DNA of 64,000 nt from a phage (GCA_036252695.1 GCA_036252695.1_4122.1); one strand, 5' to 3'; positions 2,491 through 21,182 are shown, counted from the first letter of the stretch. Notes: generated by a model from the letters alone, not told the origin. Numbers and translations: made by a program.

Positions 2491-3188
2491 ATTTTATTTT
2501 GTTTTTTCCAATAGTTCCCCTACCGCGTGGGGATAGTTTCCCCGCAGTATCTGGAGTTAGATTTTTCTGAATCTGGAATCATTATCTTATAAACTGGGGG
2601 CAATGTCAACGGCCTGGACGGATATTTTTAAAAATTTTTTTCAGTACTGAATTTTGGGCGTAACTATGCACCCGGTGGGCTTGAGTCTTTCTCGACTTGA
2701 TGGAACTATTATACAGTACTGAAAAAAATAAAGCAATACCCTGGAAGCAAAAAAGTTTTAATTAATTTGCTTGCTATCCTGGGCCGGACTATGGTACTAT
2801 ATTTCAGTACTGAGAAAGTGCGTTTACCTGCTAGGGTGCGGGAGTGTATCCTTTTTTTATATCTTGAATTTTGGGCGTAATTCCGCACCCTCTGGGGTTT
2901 CCGCTTTCTCGCGTCTATGTAGTAATTATACGCTTTTTCAGGATCAAGTCAATACCTAAAAACAAAATAATTGAAAATAATTTAACGCGTTTAAACGGCC
3001 CGTAAAGCCCTGGAATGATTGGAATGGTGCAAATGTATAGCTTAGGTGTATTAATGCGTTAGAATGCGTCTGAGGCCGTTTTATGGGGTGTAGTAGTGAT
3101 TTGGTTGATTCAGTACTGAATGATAGTACTGAATAATAGTTCCCCTATATAGAAAGAAAACTATTTTAAAAGTACATGTAGAAAGTAC

Positions 3189-4640: not shown

Positions 4641-4887
4641 GCAGTTTACAAATCTTTACAATTGCCGGTATTGACTTATTTTGTCAGTACTGGCATAATG
4701 TATTCATTGGCAGATAAGCCGTAGCCCATAGGGTGCGGGAGTGTATCTATAGAAAAAGTAGTTTAGTATAGTTACAATTGTGCACCCGGTGGGTTAGCTG
4801 TTGTCATGGGGTATATTATGCCAGTACTTGATAATGCTGTCAATACTTTTTTAATATTCAGTACTGAAAACTATTTTTAAAAAGTAC

Positions 4888-6009: not shown

Positions 6010-6067
6010 TATTCAGTACTGTAACAATGGCGGGGAATGGTTCCCGCCTTTATTGAGGGTTTATCTA

Positions 6068-6328: not shown

Positions 6329-6336
6329 AAAAGTAC

Positions 6337-6396
6337 TTGCAATTAGTTTCAAGTACTGTATAATGGTTTACATCAAAGGGGGAAATGGTTCTCCCT
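6337..6396 (+). promoter_or_regulatory. sigma70 promoter + 5' stem-loop cassette
   Basis: -35 TTGCAA 6337-6342, -10 TATAAT 6359-6364, hairpin agggggaaatggttctccct. Confidence 0.75.
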
Positions 6397-6414
6397 GGTA
6401 ATGAGGAAAATAAA

Positions 6415-6636
6415 ATGGCTAATATCACTACTCTTTCCCAACTGGAAGCACTGGTTAAATCTATGCGGGAACATGCCGACAAAATCGGCGTACAAGATCC
6501 AGCCGTTTGCTTCTGCGACGAATTGAATGATGATACACTGGTAATAGCAGAAGTCCAGGACGTTTCTAACTATTCCTCGCGTTACACTGGCGGCGTAGCA
6601 AATAAAGGTGACTTCTGTTTATACCTTACAAAATAA
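6415..6636 (+). CDS. hypothetical early protein
   Basis: RBS gagga; ORF track frame. Confidence 0.65.
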   Translation: MANITTLSQLEALVKSMREHADKIGVQDPAVCFCDELNDDTLVIAEVQDVSNYSSRYTGGVANKGDFCLYLTK

Positions 6637-6640
6637 CAAC

Positions 6641-6671
6641 GCGGGGAGATAATAACTCCCCGTTACTTTTT
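6641..6671 (+). terminator. intrinsic terminator
   Basis: cggggag...ctccccg stem followed by ttacttttt. Confidence 0.55.
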
Positions 6672-6804
6672 CAGTACTGAATCATTTAATAGACGGATCT
6701 ATGCACCCGGTGGGTTAGTGACTGTTTCGTCTTGATGTAGTAATTATGCCAGTACTGGATGCACTTGTCAACAATTATTTTTCAAATACTTTTTATTAAA
6801 ATAC

Positions 6805-6859
6805 TTGCAATTAGTTTTTAAACGCGTATAATGTTTTGCATAGGGGGAGCGGTTCCCCT
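6805..6859 (+). promoter_or_regulatory. sigma70 promoter + 5' stem-loop cassette
   Basis: -35 TTGCAA 6805-6810, -10 TATAAT 6827-6832, hairpin gggggagcggttcccc. Confidence 0.75.
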
Positions 6860-6879
6860 GGTAACTAAGGAATAATAAA

Positions 6880-7137
6880 ATGCTTGAACAAATCAAATCA
6901 ACGTCTGCGAATGTAACGGGAACGGTAGCACACTTTACTAGTGATGAATCGCGGGGCGTTCCCTATTGTGCTGTACATGTAAACACTGAGGGTAACTACT
7001 GGTTTACGGTTTACGGATCATATTCATTTGGACGGCCAGGGCATCAAAAAATTCTGGATAAAGTACAACCAACGGGTAAAAATATCACTGCCGAAATGTT
7101 TTATAAAAATCATAAAGTACTTGATAATAGTTTTTAG
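6880..7137 (+). CDS. hypothetical early protein
   Basis: RBS aaggaa; ORF track. Confidence 0.65.
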   Translation: MLEQIKSTSANVTGTVAHFTSDESRGVPYCAVHVNTEGNYWFTVYGSYSFGRPGHQKILDKVQPTGKNITAEMFYKNHKVLDNSF

Positions 7138-7180
7138 TACTGTATAATATTTTACATCGCAAGGGGGAGCGGTTCCCCCT
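7121..7180 (+). promoter_or_regulatory. sigma70 promoter + 5' stem-loop cassette
   Basis: -35 TTGATA 7121-7126, -10 TATAAT 7143-7148, hairpin agggggagcggttccccct. Confidence 0.7.
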
Positions 7181-7199
7181 GGTAACTAAGGATAATCAA

Positions 7200-7499
7200 A
7201 TGAAAATTGCAATCATCGCCCTGGCTTTATCTGTTTCCTCTTTCGCTGTTAATGCGTCATTAGATGTAAGTAGTGAAAAATTCATTCAGTGCACTGTTGC
7301 AATGACCGATGAAAGAACTGGCGAGATTGTATTAAAGGATTTAGAGATCCAGCCAGAAGCATTTAAAAACGGGCCGTTCCATGAAGAAGACGAAAAAGGT
7401 AGCACGACAATTTATTACGATGCAAGTACTAAACGCGGTTCGGTCACTGTTATGGATACTGAGAAAGTAACTCATACTGGCGTTATTAATTGCCGTTGA
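7200..7499 (+). CDS. putative secreted/periplasmic protein with N-terminal signal peptide
   Basis: N-term MKIAIIALALSVSSFAVNA is signal-peptide-like (hydrophobic core, AxA-type cleavage site). Confidence 0.65.
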   Translation: MKIAIIALALSVSSFAVNASLDVSSEKFIQCTVAMTDERTGEIVLKDLEIQPEAFKNGPFHEEDEKGSTTIYYDASTKRGSVTVMDTEKVTHTGVINCR

Positions 7500-7520
7500 T
7501 AGATACTACGGGGTAACATC

Positions 7521-7751
7521 ATGACTAAGCGAATTGTTTTACTTAACGAAAGCAGTACTACACAACTACTTAACGCCGTGCATTATGATATTGAAACGAG
7601 CGTTAATCTTATCAGTACTGTAGTACTATTGGACACTGGAAAGGTCGCCAATGATAAAGCGATTGCAGGTATATTAACGGATCTTGAGCCTGGTAGCAGT
7701 GCACCAATAACGTTAAATGGTAAAGTGTTTAATATTTTACTCACTGATTAA
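7521..7751 (+). CDS. hypothetical early protein
   Basis: RBS gggg; ORF track. Confidence 0.55.
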   Translation: MTKRIVLLNESSTTQLLNAVHYDIETSVNLISTVVLLDTGKVANDKAIAGILTDLEPGSSAPITLNGKVFNILLTD

Positions 7752-7757
7752 GTACAT

Positions 7758-7786
7758 AGCCCACCTGGTGGGCTTTTTTGTTTTTG
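7758..7786 (+). terminator. intrinsic terminator
   Basis: agcccacctggtgggc hairpin + ttttttgtttttg. Confidence 0.8.
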
Positions 7787-7833
7787 TAGTATCGTAGTAC
7801 TGAGATACTTTAAAAATAGTTTTAAAAAAGTAG

Positions 7834-7861
7834 TTGACATTACCACAAAAAGGCGTAGAAT
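7834..7861 (+). promoter_or_regulatory. sigma70 promoter with ~120-nt leader
   Basis: -35 TTGACA 7834-7839, -10 TAGAAT 7856-7861; leader resembles the 4922 leader family. Confidence 0.65.
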
Positions 7862-7984
7862 GTATTACATCAAGACGGGGAGCACTAAGTAGACCGCCAG
7901 TAAGTCGAACGAAAAACTGGACACGTCGAGAAAACTTTGATACACTAATAAACGTAAACTAAACTTTAATTGAGGATTTATAAA

Positions 7985-8467
7985 ATGGCTAATGTAAAAT
8001 CATTCATCAAAGCACTGGTAGCAAATGAAACTAACGTAGCGGCAGAGATCCTGGCTGAACTGGATAACGATACCATGAAAGCGGTACGCAATAATTTTAA
8101 CATCGCTTACAGTACTGCGAAAGAACTACAAGCAAATAAAGCGGCAGAAATTGAAGCGGCAAAGGCGGCCCGTGAAGCAGAACTACAAGCAACAATTGAA
8201 AGTATCCAGGCGGCAGTAGTTGGATTGGATCTGGAAGTAGTTACAGAGATGGCACAAAAAGCCCTGGCGGTTAAGTATGGGGAAGACAAGCCAGAAGTAA
8301 AAGCCAAAAAATGGATTCAGGAACGCGTAGCGGTAGTACTGGACAACGGGGAAGAATATCTGATTCCGGTGCGTGGTAACTGCATTGCGGTAGTACTGGA
8401 TGCGATTAACTCCAGTGGTATGACTCGCGAGGAATGGATCGAAGCTCATCGCAAAGTGGAAGCATAA
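7985..8467 (+). CDS. hypothetical Ala/Glu-rich protein (160 aa, coiled-coil-like)
   Basis: RBS gagga; KAAEIEAAKAAREAELQA segment. Confidence 0.7.
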   Translation: MANVKSFIKALVANETNVAAEILAELDNDTMKAVRNNFNIAYSTAKELQANKAAEIEAAKAAREAELQATIESIQAAVVGLDLEVVTEMAQKALAVKYGEDKPEVKAKKWIQERVAVVLDNGEEYLIPVRGNCIAVVLDAINSSGMTREEWIEAHRKVEA

Positions 8468-8488
8468 CAATTAAAGTACTGAATCACT

Positions 8489-8516
8489 AGCCCACTGCAT
8501 AAGTGGGCTTTTTTGT
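8489..8516 (+). terminator. intrinsic terminator
   Basis: gcccact...agtgggc hairpin + tttttt. Confidence 0.8.
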
Positions 8517-8668
8517 GTTTATCGTTTACCAGGCCACCAGCACCGCCTAGAATCGATTCTAACGCATTAAACTGATTATCTGATGCATCGCCCTAGCTGG
8601 TGGCGTTAAGGTCGTTAGAATGCGATTGAGAGCGTTTAAAGTATTTTGCAAAAAGTAATAAAAAGTAC

Positions 8669-8727
8669 TTGCACGATTAAGAGATTAGCGTATAATGTTT
8701 TACATCGAGAGGGGGAAACGGTTCTCC
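8669..8727 (+). promoter_or_regulatory. sigma70 promoter + 5' stem-loop cassette
   Basis: -35 TTGCAC 8669-8674, -10 TATAAT 8691-8696, GC hairpin. Confidence 0.7.
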
Positions 8728-8751
8728 TTCCAAATCAAAGGAATTAAAACA

Positions 8752-8979
8752 ATGGCTATCGTAATCACTCGCGTAACTGGTACTACTGGCAATTCTTCTA
8801 CTGTTGCTGTAATTACTAATAAGAAAGGTGCGGAACTACATTTTGCAATGTATAACTGGTCAGTTGATGAGTTTGGTCAGTACGCTAGTGTAGAATACAT
8901 TGAAACCTATCAAGTGCCGTCGATTAGTTTAACTGATTTGGGCGTTGAGCGTATCCTTTGCCTGGATGAATTAAATTAA
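8752..8979 (+). CDS. hypothetical early protein
   Basis: RBS aaagga; ORF track frame. Confidence 0.65.
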   Translation: MAIVITRVTGTTGNSSTVAVITNKKGAELHFAMYNWSVDEFGQYASVEYIETYQVPSISLTDLGVERILCLDELN

Positions 8980-8987
8980 AAAAGTAC

Positions 8988-9047
8988 TTGCAAAGTAAAT
9001 CGAATAAAGTATAATACATTACATCAAGGGGAGAAATGGTTCTCCCT
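8988..9047 (+). promoter_or_regulatory. sigma70 promoter + 5' stem-loop cassette
   Basis: -35 TTGCAA 8988-8993, -10 TATAAT 9010-9015, hairpin ggggagaaatggttctccc. Confidence 0.75.
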
Positions 9048-9065
9048 GATAATGAGGAAACTAAT

Positions 9066-9209
9066 ATGAAAACTTGTCAATGTGGTAAAAAATCTATTAC
9101 TGGTTTAAAGCGGGGCGTTGCTCTTTGTCAGTACCATTATAATTTACAAGTATGGGGTAAAGAATGGGCCGACCAGGTGGAAGCAGCAAAGAAAGCAAAA
9201 AGTAAGTAA
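9066..9209 (+). CDS. small Cys-rich protein (47 aa; not in ORF track)
   Basis: RBS gagga; MKTCQCGKK...LCQYHYN; own promoter cassette. Confidence 0.5.
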   Translation: MKTCQCGKKSITGLKRGVALCQYHYNLQVWGKEWADQVEAAKKAKSK

Positions 9210-9288
9210 AAATATTATCACAGTACTATTGACATAGTTTGATAGTACTGACATAATAGATTTTATCAAGACAACTGAGGAAAATAAA
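9208..9288 (+). repeat. duplicated ~80-bp promoter module (copies at 9502-9590 and 12580-12662)
   Basis: aaatattatcacagtactattgacatagtttgatagtactg(a/g)cataata in all three copies. Confidence 0.85.
9229..9257 (+). promoter_or_regulatory. sigma70 promoter
   Basis: -35 TTGACA 9229-9234, 17-nt spacer, -10 CATAAT 9252-9257. Confidence 0.7.
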
Positions 9289-9501
9289 ATGGCTATCATC
9301 ACTAAAATCAAAGTAAGTAAAACCCTGGTTAAACTTGAACAAGTGAAAGCAGGTTATAAAGTATCTTGGTGCGGTATGTATCGGATGTTCGCAGATATTG
9401 ATGAAGCAATCAATTATTACAGCGACACGGTTAAAAACTTTGTTCGTGCTGATGTGGTTATGGCAGTGGCAACGCACAAAGCAGCGAAAGAAAGTAAGTA
9501 A
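9289..9501 (+). CDS. hypothetical early protein (MAII family; paralog of 12663..12842)
   Basis: RBS gagga; ORF track. Confidence 0.65.
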   Translation: MAIITKIKVSKTLVKLEQVKAGYKVSWCGMYRMFADIDEAINYYSDTVKNFVRADVVMAVATHKAAKESK

Positions 9502-9520
9502 AAATATTATCACAGTACTA

Positions 9521-9549
9521 TTGACATAGTTTGATAGTACTGGCATAAT
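9521..9549 (+). promoter_or_regulatory. sigma70 promoter
   Basis: -35 TTGACA 9521-9526, -10 CATAAT 9544-9549. Confidence 0.7.
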
Positions 9550-9590
9550 AGATTTTATCAAGACAACATATTAATTTAAGGAATACAAAA

Positions 9591-9914
9591 ATGGCTAAAA
9601 CTATCATTAACACCGTTTCCCTGGCTGCAATCCGTGCAATCAATGTTGACGGTAAACGTTGGACTGATTCATATGGCAATACTTATCATTCTTGTCATGT
9701 AAGCGTCGAACTGGATAACGGTTTGAATGATCTGGCGGTTGAATCATTTACTTATGGCTATGAAGATGCATATCAACAAACGGCGTTAGATCTATTAAAG
9801 GAATCAGTAGACGGGCTTAATACTGATGAAACCTCCCTTACTCGTTTGTGCAATGATCTTAATATCCCGTTGCATTGTACTGTACAGAATGTTAAACGCA
9901 AAAAAGATCTTTAA
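9591..9914 (+). CDS. hypothetical early protein (paralog of 16675..16998)
   Basis: Shares RWTDSxGNTYHSC...ETFTYGY...KRKKD with 16675 gene. Confidence 0.7.
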   Translation: MAKTIINTVSLAAIRAINVDGKRWTDSYGNTYHSCHVSVELDNGLNDLAVESFTYGYEDAYQQTALDLLKESVDGLNTDETSLTRLCNDLNIPLHCTVQNVKRKKDL

Positions 9915-9994
9915 TTAGCTTTACTTTATGCAGATACTTTGATATAGTGTCTGCATAGGGGAAAGAAATTAAATTAACTTAAGAGGAACGTATA

Positions 9995-10264
9995 ATGAAA
10001 AATATCAGTACTTTAATCGATGCAGGTACTCATGTTCGTCGGTCTATGGTTGCAACCAGTACTACAAAACAAGTAGCGAGCGGTTATCTTGTATTTGTGC
10101 ACGATGGTAAACTCCTGGAACGTTCAATCAATTTTGATGTTAAAAACAATTGCCGTTTTATTATCTTTAAGCGTGAACAATATAAAATTGATTTACCAGC
10201 GAAGCCCATAAGCGGGGCGTACAACGTGCAATCATTGTTTGAACGTCAACCATACACCTATTAA
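9995..10264 (+). CDS. hypothetical early protein
   Basis: RBS aagagga; ORF track. Confidence 0.6.
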   Translation: MKNISTLIDAGTHVRRSMVATSTTKQVASGYLVFVHDGKLLERSINFDVKNNCRFIIFKREQYKIDLPAKPISGAYNVQSLFERQPYTY

Positions 10265-10315
10265 TCAAAACATCGTTAGCGGTCGATTTAGGCCGCTTGT
10301 ATTGGGGATTATACC

Positions 10316-10486
10316 ATGAACGTTAATCAAGTACTGAATGAGATCGAAAGCATCATTAAACCAATGAAACGCATTGATGCTATGTTAACACCGGAAGAAT
10401 GCCGCCTTTATGAGCGTTACAGTGTGGAACAAGCCCAGGAAATGGCCCGTATCCGTCCGGTTGCCAGTACTGATAAGGCGGCGTAA
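10316..10486 (+). CDS. small hypothetical protein (56 aa; not in ORF track)
   Basis: RBS tggggatt; stop overlaps next start (TAATATG). Confidence 0.45.
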   Translation: MNVNQVLNEIESIIKPMKRIDAMLTPEECRLYERYSVEQAQEMARIRPVASTDKAA

Positions 10487-10487
10487 T

Positions 10488-10697
10488 ATGCTTACTGTAC
10501 AGGATAAGATCGACATCTTAAAGGTTAATATGTATGTGATTGATGCCGTACCTGGTAAAGTATTTGCATACGATGATTCTAATCGCAGTCCGTTTTATTG
10601 CAGTCATGTAGTTGGATACGTGCCGTTGGCGTATGTTATAGAAAGAGTGGTTGATGCAGCATACAAACATTTTTTAGAAAATAATACTTGCAATTAG
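10488..10697 (+). CDS. hypothetical early protein
   Basis: In-frame ATG at 10488 within ORF 10410..10697; coupled to upstream ORF. Confidence 0.5.
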   Translation: MLTVQDKIDILKVNMYVIDAVPGKVFAYDDSNRSPFYCSHVVGYVPLAYVIERVVDAAYKHFLENNTCN

Positions 10698-10746
10698 TTT
10701 TCAGTACTGTATAATGATTTACATCGAGAGCGGGAATAGTTCCCGC
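10688..10746 (+). promoter_or_regulatory. sigma70 promoter + 5' stem-loop cassette
   Basis: -35 TTGCAA 10688-10693, -10 TATAAT 10710-10715, hairpin gcgggaatagttcccgc. Confidence 0.75.
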
Positions 10747-10767
10747 CTCACTTTTAAGGAATATGAA

Positions 10768-10914
10768 ATGAAAGCATCAAAAAAGAGTAATACTAAGAAA
10801 GCATGTTCACCTTTCGCTGGGGTATTCCCTTTACGTTTTGTTGATGAAGTAGTTTCCTACCCGCCGGGCCTTACTCCTGAGATGGTAGAAAGTTTGCGTA
10901 AATCTAAAAAATAG
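10768..10914 (+). CDS. small hypothetical protein
   Basis: RBS aagga; ATG 10768. Confidence 0.55.
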   Translation: MKASKKSNTKKACSPFAGVFPLRFVDEVVSYPPGLTPEMVESLRKSKK

Positions 10915-10917
10915 TAC

Positions 10918-10974
10918 TTGCAATTAGTTTTTAGTACTGTATAATAGTTTACATGAAGGGGAAAACGTTCCCCT
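10918..10974 (+). promoter_or_regulatory. sigma70 promoter + 5' stem-loop cassette
   Basis: -35 TTGCAA 10918-10923, -10 TATAAT 10940-10945, hairpin aggggaaaacgttcccct. Confidence 0.75.
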
Positions 10975-10996
10975 TACACCTAACGAGGAAAGTATA

Positions 10997-11248
10997 ATGG
11001 AAACAATTTTAATCAAAGACACTGCTACTACTGTAACTTATGATAATGATTGCATTATCCCAGGGACTGAGTACGGCGAACGTGTACCCGTTCAAGTAGA
11101 GATTGATACCACATACATCGACAAGGCTGACCAGTGTATCACTATTGTAATTGGTGAATATCGTTTTCTACCAGAAGAGATCCAAAAATGGCAGAATATG
11201 ATTGACCGTGCGAAATTAGTCGCACAAAGTTTAAAATACAAAGTTTAA
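10997..11248 (+). CDS. hypothetical early protein
   Basis: RBS gaggaa; ORF track. Confidence 0.65.
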   Translation: METILIKDTATTVTYDNDCIIPGTEYGERVPVQVEIDTTYIDKADQCITIVIGEYRFLPEEIQKWQNMIDRAKLVAQSLKYKV

Positions 11249-11256
11249 AATAATAC

Positions 11257-11316
11257 TTGCAATTAGTTTTTAAACGCGTATAATGTTTTACATGAAGGGG
11301 AGAAATGATTCTCCCC
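11257..11316 (+). promoter_or_regulatory. sigma70 promoter + 5' stem-loop cassette
   Basis: -35 TTGCAA 11257-11262, -10 TATAAT 11279-11284, hairpin ggggagaaatgattctcccc. Confidence 0.75.
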
Positions 11317-11334
11317 AATAACAGGAGAAACAAA

Positions 11335-11487
11335 ATGAAACAATACAACGCTCGGTTTGATGTTACTATCGGTAACGGCAAAGGTCAATTCTCTTTCAGT
11401 ACTCGCAAAAGTTATACAGAAAACTTCCTGCGTAATTGTGCACTGACCGCCGCACAAATTAAACATTACTTTCAGGCTAAAAAATGA
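11335..11487 (+). CDS. small hypothetical protein
   Basis: RBS caggag; ATG 11335. Confidence 0.55.
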   Translation: MKQYNARFDVTIGNGKGQFSFSTRKSYTENFLRNCALTAAQIKHYFQAKK

Positions 11488-11573
11488 AATCATTAGCTTA
11501 TTACAGTTCGGCCCTGGTCGGTGCATTGATCGCGGCGTTGTTAGTAACCTATCTATTCTTTATGGTGATTTAA
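11484..11573 (+). CDS. 29-aa hydrophobic micropeptide (putative single transmembrane helix)
   Basis: ATGA overlap with upstream stop; MKSLAYYSSALVGALIAALLVTYLFFMVI. Confidence 0.35.
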   Translation: MKSLAYYSSALVGALIAALLVTYLFFMVI

Positions 11574-11717
11574 ATGAATCCAACAGGTTTAAACTATAAA
11601 AGTTGTTCGGCGTTTACGAAAGCAAATAAAGCGAATGCACGTAAAGCGAAAGTAAAGGAGTACATCAAGCAAGGCATGACGCGAAAGGCGGCGATTCTAA
11701 AAGCTAAAAATAAATGA
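11574..11717 (+). CDS. 47-aa basic micropeptide
   Basis: Starts immediately after stop of preceding micropeptide; Lys-rich. Confidence 0.3.
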   Translation: MNPTGLNYKSCSAFTKANKANARKAKVKEYIKQGMTRKAAILKAKNK

Positions 11718-11910
11718 AAAAAGTGGTTGACTCCGGTCAGCCATTTTGCTATTATATATTCATTGAGAGATAGCTCACTAGCCCACAGGGTGCATAAGTG
11801 TATCTATTATATAAGTATTGAGTACTGAAAACTATTTTAAAAAAGTACTTGCAAACTATCTCAATAAGCGTATAATGTTTTACATCGAAAGGGGAAACGG
11901 TTTCCCCTGG
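11717..11910 (+). repeat. dispersed ~190-bp intergenic module (hairpin/promoter + AGCCCAC box + promoter cassette)
   Basis: Near-identical to 19012-19205; contains TTGACT 11727-11732 / TATTAT 11750-11755 inside a hairpin, and agcccacagggtgc. Confidence 0.85.
11849..11908 (+). promoter_or_regulatory. sigma70 promoter + 5' stem-loop cassette
   Basis: -35 TTGCAA 11849-11854, -10 TATAAT 11871-11876, hairpin aggggaaacggtttcccct. Confidence 0.75.
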
Positions 11911-11927
11911 TAATAAGGAAACAAATC

Positions 11928-12269
11928 ATGACTATCTCAATTGCTCAATCTAACTTTGAAAACGAAATCATCGCCCAGGCACTGCGTTTAAATGATGGTC
12001 GGGCCGAAATTAATTACGGTTTCAATTCAGGCGGTTGTGAAAAATATCAGTACTTTGTAACGGCTGATGGCGGTGTCCTGGGTATCAATACAGTTATTGT
12101 AAACATCCAAAAAATTAATTTCAATGATCCAGACGATAGCCAGTTTTACATCACTGGCGTAGACGTGAACTATGAGGATGACTCACTAACTGATGATCAC
12201 ACTGGCGAGCGGTTAGAAAGTGCATACGGTGAAGATGATTATCAGTCCGGTCCAGAAGATTTCGAATAA
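11928..12269 (+). CDS. hypothetical acidic protein
   Basis: RBS aaggaa; ORF track. Confidence 0.65.
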   Translation: MTISIAQSNFENEIIAQALRLNDGRAEINYGFNSGGCEKYQYFVTADGGVLGINTVIVNIQKINFNDPDDSQFYITGVDVNYEDDSLTDDHTGERLESAYGEDDYQSGPEDFE

Positions 12270-12284
12270 TATAAAAAAAATAGT

Positions 12285-12344
12285 TTGACAATAGATTATA
12301 GTACTGTATAATAGTTTACATCAAGGGGAGAAAAACTTCTCCCC
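12285..12344 (+). promoter_or_regulatory. sigma70 promoter + 5' stem-loop cassette
   Basis: -35 TTGACA 12285-12290, -10 TATAAT 12307-12312, hairpin ggggagaaaaacttctcccc. Confidence 0.75.
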
Positions 12345-12366
12345 ACTAACAGAGAGAGAAAACAAA

Positions 12367-12579
12367 ATGGCTAATATCCGGTCGAAATTAAAAAATGCAA
12401 AACAAGTTTTATTTTCAGATCATGAATACTTTAATAAAGATATTACAGGAGTTACAAGTATCAAGGAAGTAAAAGAAAAAACCGGCGTTTTGTGTGATGT
12501 GCGATTAGTTGGGACATTTGGGAATAACGTGCTATATCGCTGCGGTGATTACAATTTTACACTGACTATCATTAACTAA
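12367..12579 (+). CDS. hypothetical early protein
   Basis: RBS agagaga; ORF track. Confidence 0.6.
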   Translation: MANIRSKLKNAKQVLFSDHEYFNKDITGVTSIKEVKEKTGVLCDVRLVGTFGNNVLYRCGDYNFTLTIIN

Positions 12580-12598
12580 AAATATTATCACAGTACTA

Positions 12599-12627
12599 TT
12601 GACATAGTTTGATAGTACTGACATAAT
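12599..12627 (+). promoter_or_regulatory. sigma70 promoter
   Basis: -35 TTGACA 12599-12604, -10 CATAAT 12622-12627 (third copy of the 9208 module). Confidence 0.7.
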
Positions 12628-12662
12628 AACTTTTATCAACTACACTACTAAGGAATTAAAAA

Positions 12663-12842
12663 ATGGCTATCATCGCAAAAACTGAAATCGTTGGTCTGGA
12701 TTCTATCATCATGACGTTTGAAGATCAAAAAGGTATGTATGTAGTTTCCTATGGTGATTATGTTCGGGAGTATGAAACGGTAGACGAAGCCTTTGAAAGT
12801 TATATTCGCCAGGTGAATAAAGCATACGACGACTACCGCTAA
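12663..12842 (+). CDS. small protein (59 aa; MAII family; not in ORF track)
   Basis: RBS aaggaa; MAIIAKTEIV... resembles 9289 gene N-terminus. Confidence 0.5.
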   Translation: MAIIAKTEIVGLDSIIMTFEDQKGMYVVSYGDYVREYETVDEAFESYIRQVNKAYDDYR

Positions 12843-12869
12843 AATATATTACCAGTACTATTAAATCTA

Positions 12870-12897
12870 TTGACAACGTTTGATAGTACTGTATAAT
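12870..12897 (+). promoter_or_regulatory. sigma70 promoter
   Basis: -35 TTGACA 12870-12875, -10 TATAAT 12892-12897. Confidence 0.7.
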
Positions 12898-12941
12898 AAG
12901 TTTTATAAACAGTAGTTAACTTAACCTAAGAGAGAAATAAA

Positions 12942-13085
12942 ATGATCGCACTGGATTCATTCATCGACGCAGTACTGGCAAAAACTGGCGAGGATCTGAC
13001 CGCAGAACAATACGCGATGATCGAGCAATGTCAGCAAAACGGTAAATCGGTGAAAGATACTGTTAAGATTATCCGCAAGATGTAA
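12942..13085 (+). CDS. small hypothetical protein (47 aa; not in ORF track)
   Basis: RBS aagagaga; terminator-like hairpin follows. Confidence 0.45.
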   Translation: MIALDSFIDAVLAKTGEDLTAEQYAMIEQCQQNGKSVKDTVKIIRKM

Positions 13086-13091
13086 GATTAT

Positions 13092-13125
13092 AGCCCACTG
13101 GTTAACGCTGGTGGGCTTTAATCAT
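13092..13125 (+). terminator. possible intrinsic terminator
   Basis: agcccactgg...ctggtgggct hairpin; weak T tract. Confidence 0.4.
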
Positions 13126-13190
13126 TTACCCTATACAATGCCAGTACTAAACCGTTTATCTCGTTAGAATGCGTTACAGGACGTTTAACA

Positions 13191-13388
13191 ATGATTAGCA
13201 TGAAATCAGTACAAAAACAAATAGAAACATTATCAAAAATTAAACGTAAACAATACTCCTTAGAATATACAATCAATGGTAACTATCATCTAATGAAAGA
13301 AAATAATTTTATAGTCATTGATGAATCATTGCAAATTATTAGTATAGTACTGAAAGCATTAATCAATGACAGAAAAAAATTAAAATAA
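13191..13388 (+). CDS. hypothetical AT-rich small protein
   Basis: ORF track; weak RBS; composition differs from neighbours. Confidence 0.35.
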   Translation: MISMKSVQKQIETLSKIKRKQYSLEYTINGNYHLMKENNFIVIDESLQIISIVLKALINDRKKLK

Positions 13389-13392
13389 TCTA

Positions 13393-13421
13393 TTGACAAT
13401 ATCCTCCAGTACTGGCATAAT
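13393..13421 (+). promoter_or_regulatory. sigma70 promoter with ~300-nt leader
   Basis: -35 TTGACA 13393-13398, -10 CATAAT 13416-13421. Confidence 0.6.
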
Positions 13422-13481
13422 ACTTACATCAAGACGAGAACGTCACTAACCCATAGGGTGCACAAATGTAACTATATAATA

Positions 13482-13558
13482 TCGATCAATAAATGATCAA
13501 AAAAGTACTGGATCAATTTAGCATAAGGAGTATAATTCTGATCAATTCTTGATCAAAG
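13482..13558. repeat. cluster of five GATCAA motifs (Dam-site cluster)
   Basis: GATCAA at 13484, 13495, 13511, 13540, 13551. Confidence 0.7.
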
Positions 13559-13717
13559 GCAATAAACGCAGTTGAATTTATATAGACAATACGAAGGCGT
13601 TACTATCCGTGGTAATGCTGGTGGATATGTAGTATCATGTGGTTTGAATAAGATTAGCACTAGTAGTATTATTGTAGCATTACAGTACTATAGTATTTTT
13701 ATAATGAGGTTAAAATA

Positions 13718-13975
13718 ATGGCTGTAGGATTTGCGAAGGACGGGGCCGAACAAGACGAGATTAACGCAGTGATTCAGGCCGCCGTAAACCACGCTAGAAA
13801 GCAAATTAACGCACAAATAGAATCACTGATACATTGCCTCGACTGTGGCGATAAAATCCCTGAGAATCGCCGCCAGGCTGTTAAGGGATGTAAGTACTGC
13901 ATAACTTGCCAGGAGGATCATGATAGTACTTTTAAAAGAGATCCGCGTAATTGTTGGCATAGATCTATGAGATAA
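13718..13975 (+). CDS. DksA/TraR-family C4 zinc-finger protein
   Basis: CLDCGDKIPENRRQAVKGCKYCITCQ fits the C-x2-C-x17-C-x2-C TraR/DksA zinc-finger pattern. Confidence 0.6.
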   Translation: MAVGFAKDGAEQDEINAVIQAAVNHARKQINAQIESLIHCLDCGDKIPENRRQAVKGCKYCITCQEDHDSTFKRDPRNCWHRSMR

Positions 13976-13981
13976 AAAGTA

Positions 13982-14009
13982 TTGACAGTACTGAAAGATA
14001 GTGTATAAT
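13982..14009 (+). promoter_or_regulatory. sigma70 promoter
   Basis: -35 TTGACA 13982-13987, -10 TATAAT 14004-14009. Confidence 0.7.
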
Positions 14010-14038
14010 ATTTTATATCTTAACTGAGGATAGTAATC

Positions 14039-14395
14039 ATGGGAATACAACATATCACGCGTACTACTGACAATGGTGAGATCACTGGCTATCAAGTACA
14101 GGGCAAAGTAGCACAATTGCAGTACTGGTTTGAAAAACGTGGAATCATTGCACCGGATCTTGATTATGACCGTGTAGCGTTTATTGATTCTCTTTATGTT
14201 GATCCTGATAGTCGGGGCAATGGTGAAGGTAACGAATTAATGAATGCCTTTATCGATGCCGCCGATGATTCAGATTGTATCATCTTAGAATGCGATACGG
14301 GAGAAGATAACGCCTTTAATCTTAAAGAATGGTACGAAGGTTTTGGATTCGAGGTACTGATCGATAGTGAATATCCTATCATGATTTTATCATAG
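14039..14395 (+). CDS. putative small GNAT-family acetyltransferase
   Basis: RGNGEGNELM (motif A-like R-G-x-G-x-G) and NAFNLKEWYEGFGF (motif B-like); 118 aa. Confidence 0.45.
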   Translation: MGIQHITRTTDNGEITGYQVQGKVAQLQYWFEKRGIIAPDLDYDRVAFIDSLYVDPDSRGNGEGNELMNAFIDAADDSDCIILECDTGEDNAFNLKEWYEGFGFEVLIDSEYPIMILS

Positions 14396-14398
14396 TAC

Positions 14399-14466
14399 TT
14401 GCATTTAGTTTTCAGTACTGTTATAGTACTTACATCAAGGGGAAACGTCTTCCCCTACTAAGAGGA
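14399..14466 (+). promoter_or_regulatory. sigma70 promoter + 5' stem-loop cassette
   Basis: -35 TTGCAT 14399-14404, -10 TTATAG 14421-14426, hairpin aggggaaacgtcttcccct. Confidence 0.6.
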
Positions 14467-14473
14467 AATGAAA

Positions 14474-14662
14474 ATGGAAAACTTATCAAGTATTTTAGTA
14501 CAAGATGATTTCGGTAATCCTGGAAGTGCTATCATAGTTCGGGGCAATAAAGCAACGTTTGTTCTTGCTGGTGGGCCAGTACAGCGTAGCATTAAAAATA
14601 ATGCTGTTACCATTAATAATGTACGCTATCGCTTAGATAAAGAATTAATTAAAAATATGTAA
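14474..14662 (+). CDS. small hypothetical protein
   Basis: RBS aagagga 8 nt upstream of ATG 14474. Confidence 0.55.
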   Translation: MENLSSILVQDDFGNPGSAIIVRGNKATFVLAGGPVQRSIKNNAVTINNVRYRLDKELIKNM

Positions 14663-14687
14663 TATTAACTCAATAGGAAAACGATAA

Positions 14688-15011
14688 ATGTATATTCACA
14701 CTACTATCACAAAAGAAGTCCGTTGTCAATTCGAAAGTATCCCAGGTGTATGTTTCATTACAGGCACTTTCTCACCTGGTGACCGTGATAATCCAGTACT
14801 GTTACAATTACGCCATCCATCATGGGATAAAGCATTTGATCTACCGTTGAATGAATTCGCAACTACTGCTGAAAAGTACATTAAAAATATTCGCGAGAAT
14901 GATCGACTATTCATTAATGCTTTCAGTGATTCCGCGTTAAGCGAGATTCATGCGGTACTAGTTGCAATCATGGAATCAATGCAGAAAACTAAATTCAAAC
15001 AAGGTGAATAA
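14688..15011 (+). CDS. hypothetical early protein
   Basis: RBS aggaaaa; ORF track. Confidence 0.6.
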   Translation: MYIHTTITKEVRCQFESIPGVCFITGTFSPGDRDNPVLLQLRHPSWDKAFDLPLNEFATTAEKYIKNIRENDRLFINAFSDSALSEIHAVLVAIMESMQKTKFKQGE

Positions 15012-15017
15012 AAACTA

Positions 15018-15076
15018 TTGACAATGCAATCCAGTACTGTATAATAAGTTACATGAAGGGGAGAAATGATTCTCCC
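15018..15076 (+). promoter_or_regulatory. sigma70 promoter + 5' stem-loop cassette
   Basis: -35 TTGACA 15018-15023, -10 TATAAT 15040-15045, hairpin ggggagaaatgattctcccc. Confidence 0.75.
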
Positions 15077-15095
15077 CAGTACTGAGGAAAGAAAA

Positions 15096-15308
15096 ATGCA
15101 AGGTCAACTAATCGTTCGTAAATGGTCTGATACTAACGCTAAACCGTGGGATGTACAATACATCGCCCCCAATGGTGAATCCAGATATCAACCAGGTGTA
15201 ACGCATAGTACTGAGCAATTTGCCGCCGCTCACCGTGAACGACTGTTACAATCCATGCAGCAAGGCTTCGGTGAAAAATTCATTCAGGATCATTGGCTGA
15301 AAGATTAA
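15096..15308 (+). CDS. hypothetical early protein
   Basis: RBS gaggaaa; ATG 15096. Confidence 0.6.
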   Translation: MQGQLIVRKWSDTNAKPWDVQYIAPNGESRYQPGVTHSTEQFAAAHRERLLQSMQQGFGEKFIQDHWLKD

Positions 15309-15315
15309 AAAGTAC

Positions 15316-15374
15316 TTGCACAGTACTGAATAAAGTGTATAATGTTTTATATCGAGAGGGGAACTATTCCCCTC
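15316..15374 (+). promoter_or_regulatory. sigma70 promoter + 5' stem-loop cassette
   Basis: -35 TTGCAC 15316-15321, -10 TATAAT 15338-15343, hairpin gaggggaactattcccctc. Confidence 0.7.
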
Positions 15375-15394
15375 CTAACAAAAAGGAAAGTATA

Positions 15395-15568
15395 ATGATC
15401 CAAGTAGAATTATCAGTACTGAAAGATCTATTTTATCGGTTAGGTACTAATGGCGAGTATCCTAAAAGTGATACCGCAAAACTTTTTGTATCACTCGACT
15501 TATGGCAACGCGAACAATTAGTAATGTCGTGGCGTAAAGGTAAAGCAGATCGCGAGGTGAAAGCATGA
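15395..15568 (+). CDS. small hypothetical protein
   Basis: RBS aaggaaa; ATG 15395. Confidence 0.55.
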   Translation: MIQVELSVLKDLFYRLGTNGEYPKSDTAKLFVSLDLWQREQLVMSWRKGKADREVKA

Positions 15569-15714
15569 AAGAATTCTTATTCGAAGTAGTGTTTCAAGGT
15601 GTCGGTAGTAACCAACTGATTCGCTCAAGTGGTTATAATGTTAACCAGGCATGGAATAACATTAAACAAATGTACCCGAACGCTATCACATATCGCAACC
15701 CGAAAGAAGTTTAA
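15565..15714 (+). CDS. small hypothetical protein (49 aa; not in ORF track)
   Basis: ATGA overlap with upstream stop; MKEFLFEVVFQGV... Confidence 0.35.
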   Translation: MKEFLFEVVFQGVGSNQLIRSSGYNVNQAWNNIKQMYPNAITYRNPKEV

Positions 15715-15724
15715 AAATAATTGA

Positions 15725-15900
15725 AAAAGGGATTGACTCCGGTCAATCCCTTTGCTATTATATACGCATAGAAACAAATTAGCCCACCGGGTGCATAAAT
15801 GTATCTATTGTTTGCTGGTGGCTAGTACTATCAAGTACTGAAAACTATTTTTAAAAAAGTACTTGCATTGTACTTAGAATCAAGTATAATGTTTTACATC
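15725..15900 (+). repeat. dispersed ~175-bp intergenic module (copy similar to 20941-21105)
   Basis: Perfect hairpin gggattgactccggtcaatccc with embedded TTGACT/TATTAT; agcccaccgggtgc box. Confidence 0.85.
15864..15890 (+). promoter_or_regulatory. sigma70 promoter (upstream of conserved leader copy 2)
   Basis: -35 TTGCAT 15864-15869, -10 TATAAT 15885-15890. Confidence 0.65.
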
Positions 15901-15976
15901 AGGACGGGGAACGAAATAAGTAACTTCCCGTTAAGTAGTCCAGGAGTAAGACATACGAAAAACTCCCCTGATAAAA
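15897..15976 (+). ncRNA. candidate small RNA / structured leader, copy 2
   Basis: Near-identical to 4922-5000 with a few substitutions; between tandem promoters. Confidence 0.25.
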
Positions 15977-15980
15977 TAGT

Positions 15981-16008
15981 TTGACAATAGAAATTAAACG
16001 AGTATAAT
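15981..16008 (+). promoter_or_regulatory. sigma70 promoter
   Basis: -35 TTGACA 15981-15986, -10 TATAAT 16003-16008. Confidence 0.7.
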
Positions 16009-16040
16009 ACTTACATCAACCACTGATAAGGAAACATAAA

Positions 16041-16316
16041 ATGCGGATTCTACTGACAGCTAACGAAATCGAACAAGTACTGACTACTAACCTGGAAGAC
16101 TGGAAACGTGAAGCAGATATCCAGTCGGTTCAATGGCTTAACGATAAGTTAACGCCGGATGACTTAAGCAAGATTGTAGATCCTCAATTCTACGAAGATA
16201 TCCACGACACCGCGTTAAGCGTCGAGGATGTACTAGATAAGCACTTTATTGATACAGATTTGCAGGTTTACGGTCGTAAAAACTTTATCACTATTCACGA
16301 CATTTACAATACTTAA
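16041..16316 (+). CDS. hypothetical acidic protein
   Basis: RBS aaggaaa; ORF track. Confidence 0.65.
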   Translation: MRILLTANEIEQVLTTNLEDWKREADIQSVQWLNDKLTPDDLSKIVDPQFYEDIHDTALSVEDVLDKHFIDTDLQVYGRKNFITIHDIYNT

Positions 16317-16319
16317 GTA

Positions 16320-16382
16320 TTGACAAAGTATCTTAGTACTGTATAATAGTTTACATCAAGTGAGGGGAAACGGTTCCCCTCC
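16320..16382 (+). promoter_or_regulatory. sigma70 promoter + 5' stem-loop cassette
   Basis: -35 TTGACA 16320-16325, -10 TATAAT 16342-16347, hairpin gaggggaaacggttcccctc; duplicated at 16591. Confidence 0.75.
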
Positions 16383-16404
16383 TAACAAAGAGAGAGAAAT
16401 AAAA

Positions 16405-16587
16405 ATGGCTAAGTGCACTATCTGCAAGAAAGAAATAGTATTAGTTCCAAGTGCCCGTGAACGTGCCGCTCGGTTTGGTGGCAAAGCGTCAGACTATACA
16501 AAAATGTTTACTGCCCATACAGCTTGCCAGGTAGCAAAACGTTCACAAGAAAGCGTAGAATTAATGCGTAAACTTTCCAAAAAATAA
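16405..16587 (+). CDS. small Cys-containing protein (possible zinc ribbon)
   Basis: MAKCTICKKE...HTACQ; RBS agagagaga. Confidence 0.55.
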   Translation: MAKCTICKKEIVLVPSARERAARFGGKASDYTKMFTAHTACQVAKRSQESVELMRKLSKK

Positions 16588-16590
16588 GTA

Positions 16591-16652
16591 TTGACAAAGT
16601 ATCTTAGTACTGTATAATAGTTTACATCAAGTGAGGGGAATGGTTCCCCTCC
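16591..16652 (+). promoter_or_regulatory. sigma70 promoter + 5' stem-loop cassette
   Basis: -35 TTGACA 16591-16596, -10 TATAAT 16613-16618, hairpin gaggggaatggttcccctc. Confidence 0.75.
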
Positions 16653-16674
16653 TAACAAAAAGAGAGAAATTAAA

Positions 16675-16998
16675 ATGACTATGATCCTTACCCAGAAAGT
16701 AGAAATGAAAATTGTAACTTCCTTTGACATTAAAGTTAATCGGTGGACTGATAGCCACGGCAATACTTACCACTCATGCTACGTGTCTGCATTGATTGGT
16801 GACCGCTGGGAAGACCTGGGACATGAAACCTTTACTTACGGTTACGGTACACAAGGCGAATACACGGGCTTGGAGATCATTAAAGAAACCGTTATAGGTT
16901 TCAACCCGAAAGAAAAAGTTATTCACCGCATCGAGGAAGAGATCAACAAAGAAATTACAGTTCGTTACTACGATGTAAAACGTAAGAAAGACATGTAA
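16675..16998 (+). CDS. hypothetical early protein (paralog of 9591..9914)
   Basis: NRWTDSHGNTYHSC...ETFTYGYG...VKRKKDM. Confidence 0.7.
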   Translation: MTMILTQKVEMKIVTSFDIKVNRWTDSHGNTYHSCYVSALIGDRWEDLGHETFTYGYGTQGEYTGLEIIKETVIGFNPKEKVIHRIEEEINKEITVRYYDVKRKKDM

Positions 16999-17020
16999 TA
17001 GAATCCATTTAAAGTACTAT

Positions 17021-17049
17021 TTGACATTGCCCAGATAGTACTTTATAAT
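17021..17049 (+). promoter_or_regulatory. sigma70 promoter
   Basis: -35 TTGACA 17021-17026, 17-nt spacer, -10 TATAAT 17044-17049. Confidence 0.7.
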
Positions 17050-17097
17050 AGACTCTAACTTGTAGTACTAATTAACTTAACTAATAGGATGTACACC

Positions 17098-17493: not shown

Positions 17494-17516
17494 TAACTTT
17501 GCAGTACTAACAACAC

Positions 17517-17542
17517 GGCGGGAACTATTCCCGCCTTTTTTA
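17517..17542 (+). terminator. intrinsic terminator
   Basis: ggcgggaactattcccgcc + ttttttat. Confidence 0.7.
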
Positions 17543-17555
17543 TAGGATAAACAAA

Positions 17556-19011: not shown

Positions 19012-19205
19012 AAAAAAGGGATTGACTCCAGTCAGTCCCTTTGCTATTATATATTCATTGAGAGATAACTCACTGACCCATAGGGTGCGGAAGTGTATCT
19101 ATTATATAAGTATTCAGTACTGAAAACTATTTTATAAAAAGTACTTGCAAACTATCTCAATGAGCGTATAATGTTTTATATCGAGAGGGGGAAATGGTTC
19201 TCCCT
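19012..19205 (+). repeat. dispersed ~190-bp intergenic module (near-identical to 11717-11910)
   Basis: Same hairpin/promoter, acccatagggtgcgg box and promoter cassette. Confidence 0.85.
19145..19205 (+). promoter_or_regulatory. sigma70 promoter + 5' stem-loop cassette
   Basis: -35 TTGCAA 19145-19150, -10 TATAAT 19167-19172, hairpin agggggaaatggttctccct. Confidence 0.75.
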
Positions 19206-20940: not shown

Positions 20941-21105
20941 AAAGGGATTGACTCCGGTCAGTCCCTTTGCTATTATATACGCATAGACAAAAACTAGCCC
21001 ACAGGGTGCAGAGAAGTATCTATAAGATAGTTAATAACGGTGAGTAACTATCTGCTGGTGGATGTAATGCCAGTACTCAAAACTATTTCAAAAAAAGTAT
21101 TGACA
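20941..21105 (+). repeat. dispersed intergenic module (copy similar to 15725-15900)
   Basis: aaagggattgactccggtcagtccctttgctattatatacgcatag + agcccacagggtgc. Confidence 0.85.
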
Positions 21106-21127
21106 AAGTATATCAGTACTGAGATAA
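21100..21127 (+). promoter_or_regulatory. sigma70 promoter
   Basis: -35 TTGACA 21100-21105, -10 GATAAT 21122-21127; module duplicated at 21417. Confidence 0.65.
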
Positions 21128-21182
21128 TGTATCTCGTAGGGCGGCAATAGTGCAGCCCACCTCCAAAAGAGCGAGATATAAA

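Follow-up and report, generated by a model that had tools for sequence, protein, structure and literature searches.

A promoter-coupled, covarying two-hairpin motif in the direct terminal repeat of an Asteriusvirus genome

We have analyzed a stretch of 64,000 nucleotides (nt) of phage DNA from GCA_036252695.1, called the window below, in which an intergenic module is repeated. A megablast search places it in Asteriusvirus (121Q/PBECO4-like jumbo coliphages of about 350 kb), the closest matches being fEgEco12, Turkey3 and vB_Ec-M-J, with 95-98% identity. The true repeated unit is a promoter of the type that we call class II followed by a two-hairpin motif of about 50 nt; there are ten of these units per terminal repeat, in either orientation, and a terminator hairpin is optional. 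Three features are clear from the computational analysis: The motif is coupled to a promoter, strand-specific and covarying; a terminator of the sense strand is fused to the promoter; and the motif is restricted to the terminal repeat. On balance, we lean towards explaining the module as a composite early-transcription cassette of the direct terminal repeat, whose motif would act as RNA.

RaK2/121Q-like jumbo phages are candidates for therapy, but their early programme is essentially unannotated, and the terminal repeat consists of tiny orphan genes. The region is now mapped into transcription units bounded by terminator-promoter overlaps, with two promoter classes separated, and a conserved covarying RNA motif has been defined which has no annotation, no Rfam family and no searchable paper describing it.

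The limits of the repeat come from the record of vB_Ec-M-J, in which a direct terminal repeat of 21,525 bp is annotated at 1-21,525. Positions 15720-15830 of the window, which belong to a module, correspond to 14005-14115 in this record, therefore the terminal repeat should cover approximately 1716-23240 of the window. All ten copies of the motif lie inside the matching region. Similarly, all 11 motif hits in the first 50 kb of Yersinia phage fHe-Yen9-03 are found below 15.9 kb. Genes in the window are small and almost all plus-strand, with a separate promoter for every one. Every motif copy is flanked by small open reading frames (ORFs) from PHROGs of unknown function. GenBank records annotate nothing at the module sites, or -35/-10 signals, or terminators.

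The two-hairpin motif

A first-pass annotation had described a dispersed module in this DNA, and the module is real. Four full copies (11712-11930, 15718-15935, 19007-19225 and 20933-21152) can be aligned over about 200 nt. The multiple alignment contains the hairpin, the promoter and the box, not a generic promoter alone, and separates two subtypes, 11717/19012 and 15725/20941 (families D15 and D18). These modules are composites of separable parts. The box CCCAYNGGGTGC occurs ten times with at most one mismatch, compared to 0.31 expected, and none of 100 shuffled sequences reaches ten. Partial copies had been suspected near 4660 and 6700: Both are genuine box copies, the former being half of a convergent pair and the latter lying on the minus strand. 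Four more copies of the motif (2652-2703, 2869-2920 and 4766-4816 on the minus strand, 13426-13477 on the plus strand) had not been listed. A degenerate box is also present at 2828-2839 (plus strand).

Transcription is predicted to start at the A of a conserved CAU, seven bases downstream of the -10, and the motif begins 1-5 nt past this position. In all ten copies the box is found 21-28 nt 3' of a sigma-70-type -10 (TTGACW-17-YATWAT, usually TG-extended), in the same orientation. Among the relatives, 65 of the 69 distinct copies have a sigma-70 promoter with its -10 at a fixed distance from the motif. The stem of the first hairpin (H1) has 3-5 bp and is free in sequence, and the loop of 6-8 nt is rich in purines, for example AGAUAA, GAGAAA or AGAACAA. 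The H1 stems differ between copies, yet they pair: GAC/GUC, GUC/GAC, CGC/GCG, UGAG/CUCA and UGGC/GCCG are all found. A YUAR linker leads to the second hairpin (H2), formed by R-CCC, a loop of 3-4 nt and GGG-U. H2 is what had been reported as a conserved AGCCCAC.GGGTGC box. The conservation holds, in ten copies, but we read the sequence as one of two hairpins in a structured RNA motif close to the promoter, and not as a simple box in the DNA. Next come GC, five variable bases, mostly purines, and UGUAUCUAU, that is, (U)GUAUCUAU. About one quarter of the copies have a short form, in which H1 is reduced to an A-rich segment.

For further searches a covariance model (R1) was built from 13 gap-free sequences, and the copies were realigned with Infernal; gap-free copies were used because a MAFFT alignment of all copies mis-registers H1. 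With filters off, R1 finds exactly ten copies in the 64 kb, six on the plus strand and four on the minus strand, with E values from 1e-16 to 4e-6, and nothing else at E of 1 or below. Relatives were gathered by BLAST and by pattern scans of IMG/VR and of metagenomes. R1 detects 78 copies (67 distinct) in the phage loci and 51 copies (42 distinct, 32 of them new) in the metagenome loci, which gives about 100 distinct sequences.

The three inner pairs of H1 use GC, CG, AU and UA freely, with 0-2 unpaired cells among the 67 distinct sequences. Its covariation score is 0.383, compared to 0.141 in shuffled alignments (none of 500 reaches the observed value) and at most 0.056 when the partners are slid. 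The independent metagenome set gives practically the same result (0.376 and 0.128, respectively). In a test which requires no alignment, the mean longest stem is 3.54, above all 500 shuffles (2.87 +/- 0.14). RNAalifold predicts both helices independently. The CCC/GGG pairs of H2 are nearly invariant, while its outer pair is A-U in 34 and G-U in 30 of the 67 sequences. Double changes to CCU...AGG have taken place twice independently, in CBB and in fHe-Yen9-03, and keep the inner pair. The fold is strand-specific owing to its many G-U pairs, and this, combined with the constant spacing to the promoter, points to a transcript and not to a site in double-stranded DNA.

No helix beyond H1 and H2 is supported by mutual information or RNAalifold. 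A third helix between GGGUG and the downstream YRUCY shows no covariation in mutual information and would consist mostly of G-U pairs, and the CCU...AGG changes favour CCC:GGG; the YRUCY positions are nonetheless limited to bases able to pair with GGGUG. A pseudoknot between the H1 loop (AGAUA) and UAUCU is possible only with loops of the AGAUAA type, not with GAGAAA or GCGAAA. A closing helix AUAGA/UCUAU pairs in short-form copies only.

Real instances of the motif are found only in contigs of RaK2-like jumbo phages, always with the same layout. Carriers include 121Q, RaK2, GAP32, CBB, Serratia phage BF, fHe-Yen9-03 and several uncultured relatives. Conservation extends to at least six host genera, with phages of Escherichia, Klebsiella, Yersinia, Serratia, Cronobacter, Pectobacterium and Salmonella. 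The whole window gives no Rfam 15 hit at the gathering threshold; at E of 1 or below, the region 2400-21400 gives three weak hits, none of them at a motif copy. We have set aside a bacterial origin, since a strict motif pattern has no match in 185,579 bacterial species genomes, a zero which applies to the stringent pattern only. Literature searches did not find the motif, and box strings only gave chance matches to primers. The CBB paper describes promoters, but not the two-hairpin motif. The related phage PA5oct has highly expressed noncoding RNAs in its terminal repeat (PMC7318152); R1 finds no match in them, so that a relation has been ruled out. The motif is apparently undescribed, and what is new is an RNA motif carried on a cassette of a known type, as discussed below.

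Terminators, cassettes and orientation of the copies

Each of the four full modules has a G+C-rich hairpin, 2-16 nt past the stop codon of the plus-strand gene before it, and the -35 sequence of the TTGACT-17-TATTAT promoter lies in the 5' arm of this hairpin. For example, ORF 11574-11717 has its stop codon 2 nt before the hairpin at 11720-11747. Three matches to the hairpin GGGATTGACTCCGGTCAGTCCC with no more than one mismatch are present, compared to none expected, and in the fourth copy (11720-11747) pairing is preserved by compensating changes (GTGG...CCAT). That a hairpin embeds a sigma-70-type promoter had been noted before, and it is found at all four modules. It had also been read as a leftward terminator which would insulate the rightward genes from antisense transcription. 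On the minus strand, the hairpin and a run of 5-8 T are literally there. Nevertheless, the plus-strand hairpin is more stable in all four copies, with folding energies of -16.9 to -19.5 kcal/mol compared to -6.4 to -17.1 kcal/mol on the minus strand. A hairpin over the -35 box is found in 52 of the 101 distinct promoter regions of relatives, and in 50 of these 52 the promoter strand is the stabler one, typically by 4-10 kcal/mol. This bias is due to G-U wobbles of the promoter strand, which are A-C mismatches on the other strand. The outer stem covaries (GGGG/CCCC, GUAC/GUAC, AGGC/GCCU), and a U-tract follows on the transcribed strand, short in this phage (UUUGCUAUUAU) and with 5-6 U in relatives. 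The upstream A-run, which is the source of the minus-strand T-tract, is present at all four modules in the position of an UP element. Insulation does not fit these data: No strong minus-strand promoter is found to the right of the modules, and the minus-strand box promoters are all located at 2.7-6.8 kb. From the stability bias of the sense strand and the location right after stop codons, we predict a rightward intrinsic terminator fused to the next promoter, not a leftward insulator. It may have some bidirectional activity.

Yersinia phage PY100, an unrelated 50-kb phage, has at 1500-1552 a near-identical hairpin with an embedded -35 box (GGGGTTGACTTCGGTCAATCCC, T-run and -10). As in the modules, GGGG-TTGAC-UUCG-GTCAA-CCC is followed by a T-run into the -10 and lies between two rightward genes, but no box motif comes after the promoter. 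Either convergence or horizontal transfer could account for this likeness; convergence may be forced by placing TTGAC in a stem. We should also note two ordinary plus-strand terminators of the window, 7758-7774 and 8489-8509, with the structure AGCCCAC-loop-GTGGGCT followed by a T-run, which open with the heptamer AGCCCAC of the box, perhaps only by chance.

A promoter cassette had been described as part of the module. It is present, but it is generic: This class-I early promoter with a hairpin in the 5' untranslated region (5'-UTR) has at least 13 copies in the first 30 kb (families D1-D4) and is not specific for the module. Gene-sized insertions and deletions relative to 121Q have their junctions inside class-I cassettes, at 10742/11247, 14650/15010 and 16411/16579 of the window, and none at the box modules. 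The proposal that the repeats are recombination substrates thus finds support in the class-I cassettes only, whose junctions are consistent with modular shuffling. The module itself shows no sign of active shuffling: Asteriusvirus records mostly have it in four places when they contain one terminal repeat and mostly in eight when they contain both, while a few show 5, 7 or 10. A mobile miniature element, similar to a miniature inverted-repeat transposable element, has also been rejected, given these near-constant places and a module alignment with neither terminal repeats nor target duplications.

Promoter-early stem-loop (PeSL) cassettes have been described in the T4-type phages RB49/phi1 by Arbiol et al. 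2010 (PMC2839356), where they recombine; in one subclass the stem-loop overlaps the -35 box, as the hairpin of the window does. The shuffling just mentioned would be of the PeSL type. Like PeSLs, our cassettes are small and intergenic and combine a strong sigma-70-like promoter, an AT-rich upstream tract and a GGGG...CCCC terminator stem-loop. They are also dense among small orphan early genes, and junctions of insertions and deletions fall in those of class I. On the other hand, they belong to the RaK2-like jumbo phage lineage, they are located in a terminal repeat, and the family is defined by a conserved transcribed two-hairpin motif 3' of the promoter, which PeSLs do not have. The cassette of the window has the PeSL features which can be computed and appears to work like a PeSL, which would extend the PeSL idea beyond T4-type phages.

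Copies with the same direction as the genes open multi-gene units at 11.7, 15.7, 19.0 and 20.9 kb, with a second promoter and a gene within 30-60 nt. Genes located 3' of the copies correspond to unrelated PHROG families, therefore the motif is not a gene-specific leader, a candidate which has been excluded. One of them, ORF 13718-13975, 3' of copy 13426-13477, codes for a C4 zinc finger of the DksA/TraR type (Pfam PF01258, E 1e-11) and, as a gene of the early repeat, is a candidate for modulating the RNA polymerase of the host.

Copies which oppose the direction of the genes are only found in the left third of the repeat, both in the window and in fHe-Yen9-03. About 20-25 nt later come CAGUACUG, an A-rich stretch and a strong terminator, which also serves the convergent gene, so that the predicted RNA has about 100 nt. 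At least 12 copies, in Asteriusvirus, RaK2, fHe-Yen9-03, Serratia phage BF and CBB, have an intrinsic terminator at this distance. The layout of a stand-alone small-RNA gene (own promoter, no ORF, Rho-independent terminator) is found in gene-opposing copies such as 6771-6640, but not in the six copies oriented with the genes. Convergent pairs with fixed spacing account for 16 copies and recur in several genera; the pair of the window is 4702-4752 (plus strand) and 4766-4816 (minus strand). Reading through such pairs would produce long, near-perfect hairpins (-40 kcal/mol for the 4702 copy). No further anti-box is present in the window besides the convergent partners.

What the motif may do

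In the explanation we favour, the cassette would have four parts: an intrinsic terminator of the upstream rightward gene, with a 5' arm which at the same time provides the -35 box for the following promoter; a TG-extended sigma-70-type promoter, TTGACW-17-YATWAT, probably an early one of the host type; the conserved two-hairpin motif at the 5' end of the transcript; and a generic early promoter with a 5'-UTR hairpin and a ribosome binding site for the next small gene. The motif is probably a real transcribed, structured RNA element, judging by its pairing and its place behind the promoter. It would act as RNA, the invariant H2 and its flanks being the recognition site for a conserved host or phage protein, and the copies would jointly supply an abundant immediate-early family of small RNAs or 5' tags. 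Gene-opposing copies would be released as terminated RNAs of about 100 nt, and with gene-wise copies the first transcript of each unit would begin with the same tag. The effect would most likely be on the fate of the RNA, or on a partner protein which is titrated or recruited. We propose this protein-binding family of small RNAs and tags tentatively; we favour it because the motif is independent of gene orientation, stand-alone terminated units are present and the hairpin is invariant across phages of at least six host genera.

Multi-copy small-RNA families exist in enterobacteria and vibrios, such as Qrr1-5 and OmrA/B. The motif copies resemble them as paralogues with an invariant segment near the 5' end and variable elsewhere, and the gene-opposing copies also have their own promoter, no ORF, an A/U-rich tract, a Rho-independent terminator and a length of about 100 nt. 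They differ in that most copies run on into mRNA and in that they are encoded by a phage and confined to its terminal repeat.

A bolder and rather doubtful proposal is that H1-H2/GGGUGC represents an immediate-early RNA of a class new to phages: The terminal repeats, where the early genes and host-type promoters are located, would flood the cell with an invariant hairpin tag from about 10-20 strong promoters of this type, and the tag would capture or reprogram a conserved enterobacterial protein, for example RNA polymerase, an elongation factor, an RNA chaperone, an RNase or a defence protein. Binding of a host or phage protein by the motif, if true, would be a new RNA-based mechanism of early regulation or takeover; if the flooding proposal is also true, RaK2-like jumbo phages would have an RNA-based device for host takeover in common. 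The motif can be tested directly, since it has only 52 nt, designs for compensatory mutations are clear and the covariance model is ready. Even if it turned out to be a mere stabilising leader, the reading of the hairpins has been corrected from leftward insulators to rightward terminators.

Several observations weigh against the motif acting as a structured RNA of this kind. The consensus fold is weak (-4.6 kcal/mol with RNAalifold), and alignments made with a covariance model are biased towards the modelled structure. The H1 stem is absent in about one quarter of the copies, so it is not essential. H2 is almost invariant, and its pairing depends on the outer pair (A/G-U) and on the two double changes. 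In the window, six of the ten copies have no terminator before the next promoter, and the release of a small RNA from them would need processing. The starts of transcription, the 3' ends and the abundance of the RNA come from prediction, and the partner protein is hypothetical. In addition, an elongation element acting in cis would be just as compatible with a position close to the promoter, where each transcription unit begins.

The main rival, which we regard as unlikely, is based on this last point: The nascent two-hairpin RNA would modify its own polymerase, alone or with a phage or host factor, so that it reads through early-region hairpins and terminators or resists Rho. HK022 put consists of two long stem-loops (about 65-70 nt) which act in cis on RNA polymerase, and boxB of lambda has a 5-bp stem with a GNRA-like pentaloop bound by the arginine-rich N protein. 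Like put and lambda nut (boxA plus boxB), the motif is always found directly 3' of its promoter, as small strand-specific hairpins of early promoters with purine-rich loops and invariant adjacent elements; the loops GAGAAA, GCGAAA and GAACAA of H1 resemble those of boxB. Copies which carry the terminator hairpin head multi-gene units after a strong terminator, with about ten G+C-rich class-I hairpin cassettes to cross, and an invariant H2 would be expected of a site read by polymerase or a Nus-type factor. Against this, four of the ten copies in the window, and about one third elsewhere, oppose the genes and face a strong terminator 20-25 nt on or a convergent partner. There are about ten copies per repeat instead of two, and nearly every downstream gene has its own promoter, so that read-through is not obviously needed. 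The stems of put are far longer than the 4 + 4 bp of the motif. Matches to the boxA consensus (YGCUCUUWA) are at chance level in the window, 58 compared to 53.9 expected, none of them beside a motif copy, and a crude scan of its small ORFs gives no candidate for an N-like arginine-rich protein. A stabilising or processing role is improbable: H1 would shield class-II transcripts from decay dependent on the 5' end, while H2 with the AU-rich UAUCUAU would be an endonuclease site. Stem-loops at the 5' end stabilise mRNA in Escherichia coli, as in the ompA leader, and H1, which begins 1-5 nt from the predicted 5' end, keeps its pairing with a free sequence. Such a role needs neither an invariant H2 of 12 nt nor conservation across genera, the short-form copies lack the H1 stem, and the terminated stand-alone copies carry no message to stabilise.

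The model of the first-pass annotation, leftward insulation with the copies as recombination substrates, keeps little probability. The minus-strand T-run, the junctions relative to 121Q and the recombination of PeSLs (PMC2839356) agree with it, but the hairpin is weaker on that strand and placed directly after plus-strand stop codons, the A-run fits an UP element, strong leftward promoters to the right are lacking, only class-I cassettes contain junctions while the module copy number is nearly constant, and the covarying motif is left without explanation. We give still less credit to an element acting in DNA, either a replication origin of the R-loop type, as T4 oriF/oriG, in which the short transcript would remain paired to the DNA and the displaced strand would fold into H1 and H2, or the operator of a regulator. 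Orientation independent of the neighbouring genes, multiple copies restricted to the terminal repeat, convergent promoter pairs of fixed geometry in several genera and the T4-like replication proteins of this phage clade (PMC5259590) would all fit, and since the displaced non-template strand has the sequence of the RNA, covariation does not separate the two. Nevertheless, the G-U(T) wobbles so common in the outer pair of H2 are poor in DNA hairpins, the variable loop length of H2 and the free sequence of the H1 stem speak against a duplex operator, no conserved AT-rich unwinding element is found 3' of the motif, and ten origins in 20 kb seem excessive.

Features of the window

The coordinates of the features are collected in Table 1.

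Table 1. Predicted features of the window. Energies and R1 scores are given where available.
Feature	Position	Strand	Remarks
Box	4725, 11782, 13450, 15783, 19077, 20998	+	
Box	2668, 2885, 4782, 6703	-	
Class-II unit with weak -35	2652..2736	-	Promoter TTGCTT-17-TATAAT 2736-2708; motif 2703-2652
Class-II unit	2869..2952	-	Promoter 2952-2925; motif 2920-2869; opposes the degenerate plus-strand box
Class-II unit, plus half of convergent pair	4671..4752	+	TTGACT-17-CATAAT; motif 4702-4752
Class-II unit, minus half of convergent pair	4766..4843	-	Promoter 4843-4815; motif 4816-4766
Stand-alone unit	6640..6771	-	Promoter 6771-6743; motif 6738-6687; CAGTACTG; terminator 6662-6642
Terminator hairpin, -35 box in 5' arm	11720..11747	+	Variant GTGG...CCAT; -16.9 (plus), -6.4 (minus) kcal/mol
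Class-II sigma-70 promoter	11727..11755	+	TTGACT-17-TATTAT, TG-extended -10
Motif, long form	11758..11809	+	H1 UGAG/CUCA; H2 GCCC-ACA-GGGU; R1 65.8 bits, E 1.9e-16
Generic class-I early promoter, 5'-UTR hairpin and ribosome binding site	11849..11927	+	TTGCAA-16-TATAAT; for ORF 11928-12269; families D1-D4
Class-II promoter and motif	13393..13477	+	TTGACA-17-CATAAT; motif 13426-13477; -35 box without terminator hairpin
Terminator hairpin with embedded -35 box	15726..15753	+	
Class-II promoter	15733..15761	+	TTGACT-17-TATTAT
Motif, short form	15764..15810	+	A-rich segment without H1 stem, plus H2; R1 36.6 bits, E 8.9e-8
Class-I promoter 3' of motif	15863..15890	+	TTGCAT-16-TATAAT
Terminator hairpin with embedded -35 box	19015..19042	+	
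Class-II promoter	19022..19050	+	TTGACT-17-TATTAT
Motif, long form	19053..19104	+	R1 66.3 bits, E 1.4e-16
Class-I promoter 3' of motif	19145..19172	+	TTGCAA-16-TATAAT
Terminator hairpin with embedded -35 box	20941..20968	+	
Class-II promoter	20948..20976	+	TTGACT-17-TATTAT
Motif, short form	20979..21025	+	R1 35.5 bits, E 1.8e-7
Second promoter 3' of motif	21100..21128	+	TTGACA-17-GATAAT

The terminator of the stand-alone unit serves both this minus-strand unit and a plus-strand gene, and the predicted RNA has about 100 nt. The unit at 2652-2736 is found in a region without ORFs, about 1 kb into the terminal repeat as counted from its inferred left end. This region, 1250-3215, has no ORF over about 2 kb and contains the inferred left boundary (about 1716). 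It also presents GGCTAAACGGCTAGA and GGACG units at 2290-2490, two copies of GATTGCTCAAG at about 1488-1510, and, besides the two leftward box promoters, another leftward promoter at 2609-2581.

A third promoter family (CACAGTACTATTGACATAGTTTGATAGTACTGACATAAT, D11) is found at 9199-9275, 9491-9567, 12569-12645 and 20291-20367, in copies which are 87-99% identical. Its transcripts would start with AUCAAGAC, as in some box copies, but without the motif.

The palindrome AGTACT, often as CAGTACTG, occurs 255 times in the 64 kb and is densest at 1-24000. This is about 11 times the number expected from base composition and three times that of the next most common 6-bp palindrome. It is found in promoter spacers, directly 5' of the -10, and every box motif has it about 20 nt downstream; some regulator may bind to it.

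Finally, a tandem array of at least ten paralogous ORFs of about 70 amino acids, with a period of about 212 nt (families D9, D14 and D20), covers 22900-28200. It starts near the inferred right boundary of the repeat, and its members have an LGTNYQ motif in common.

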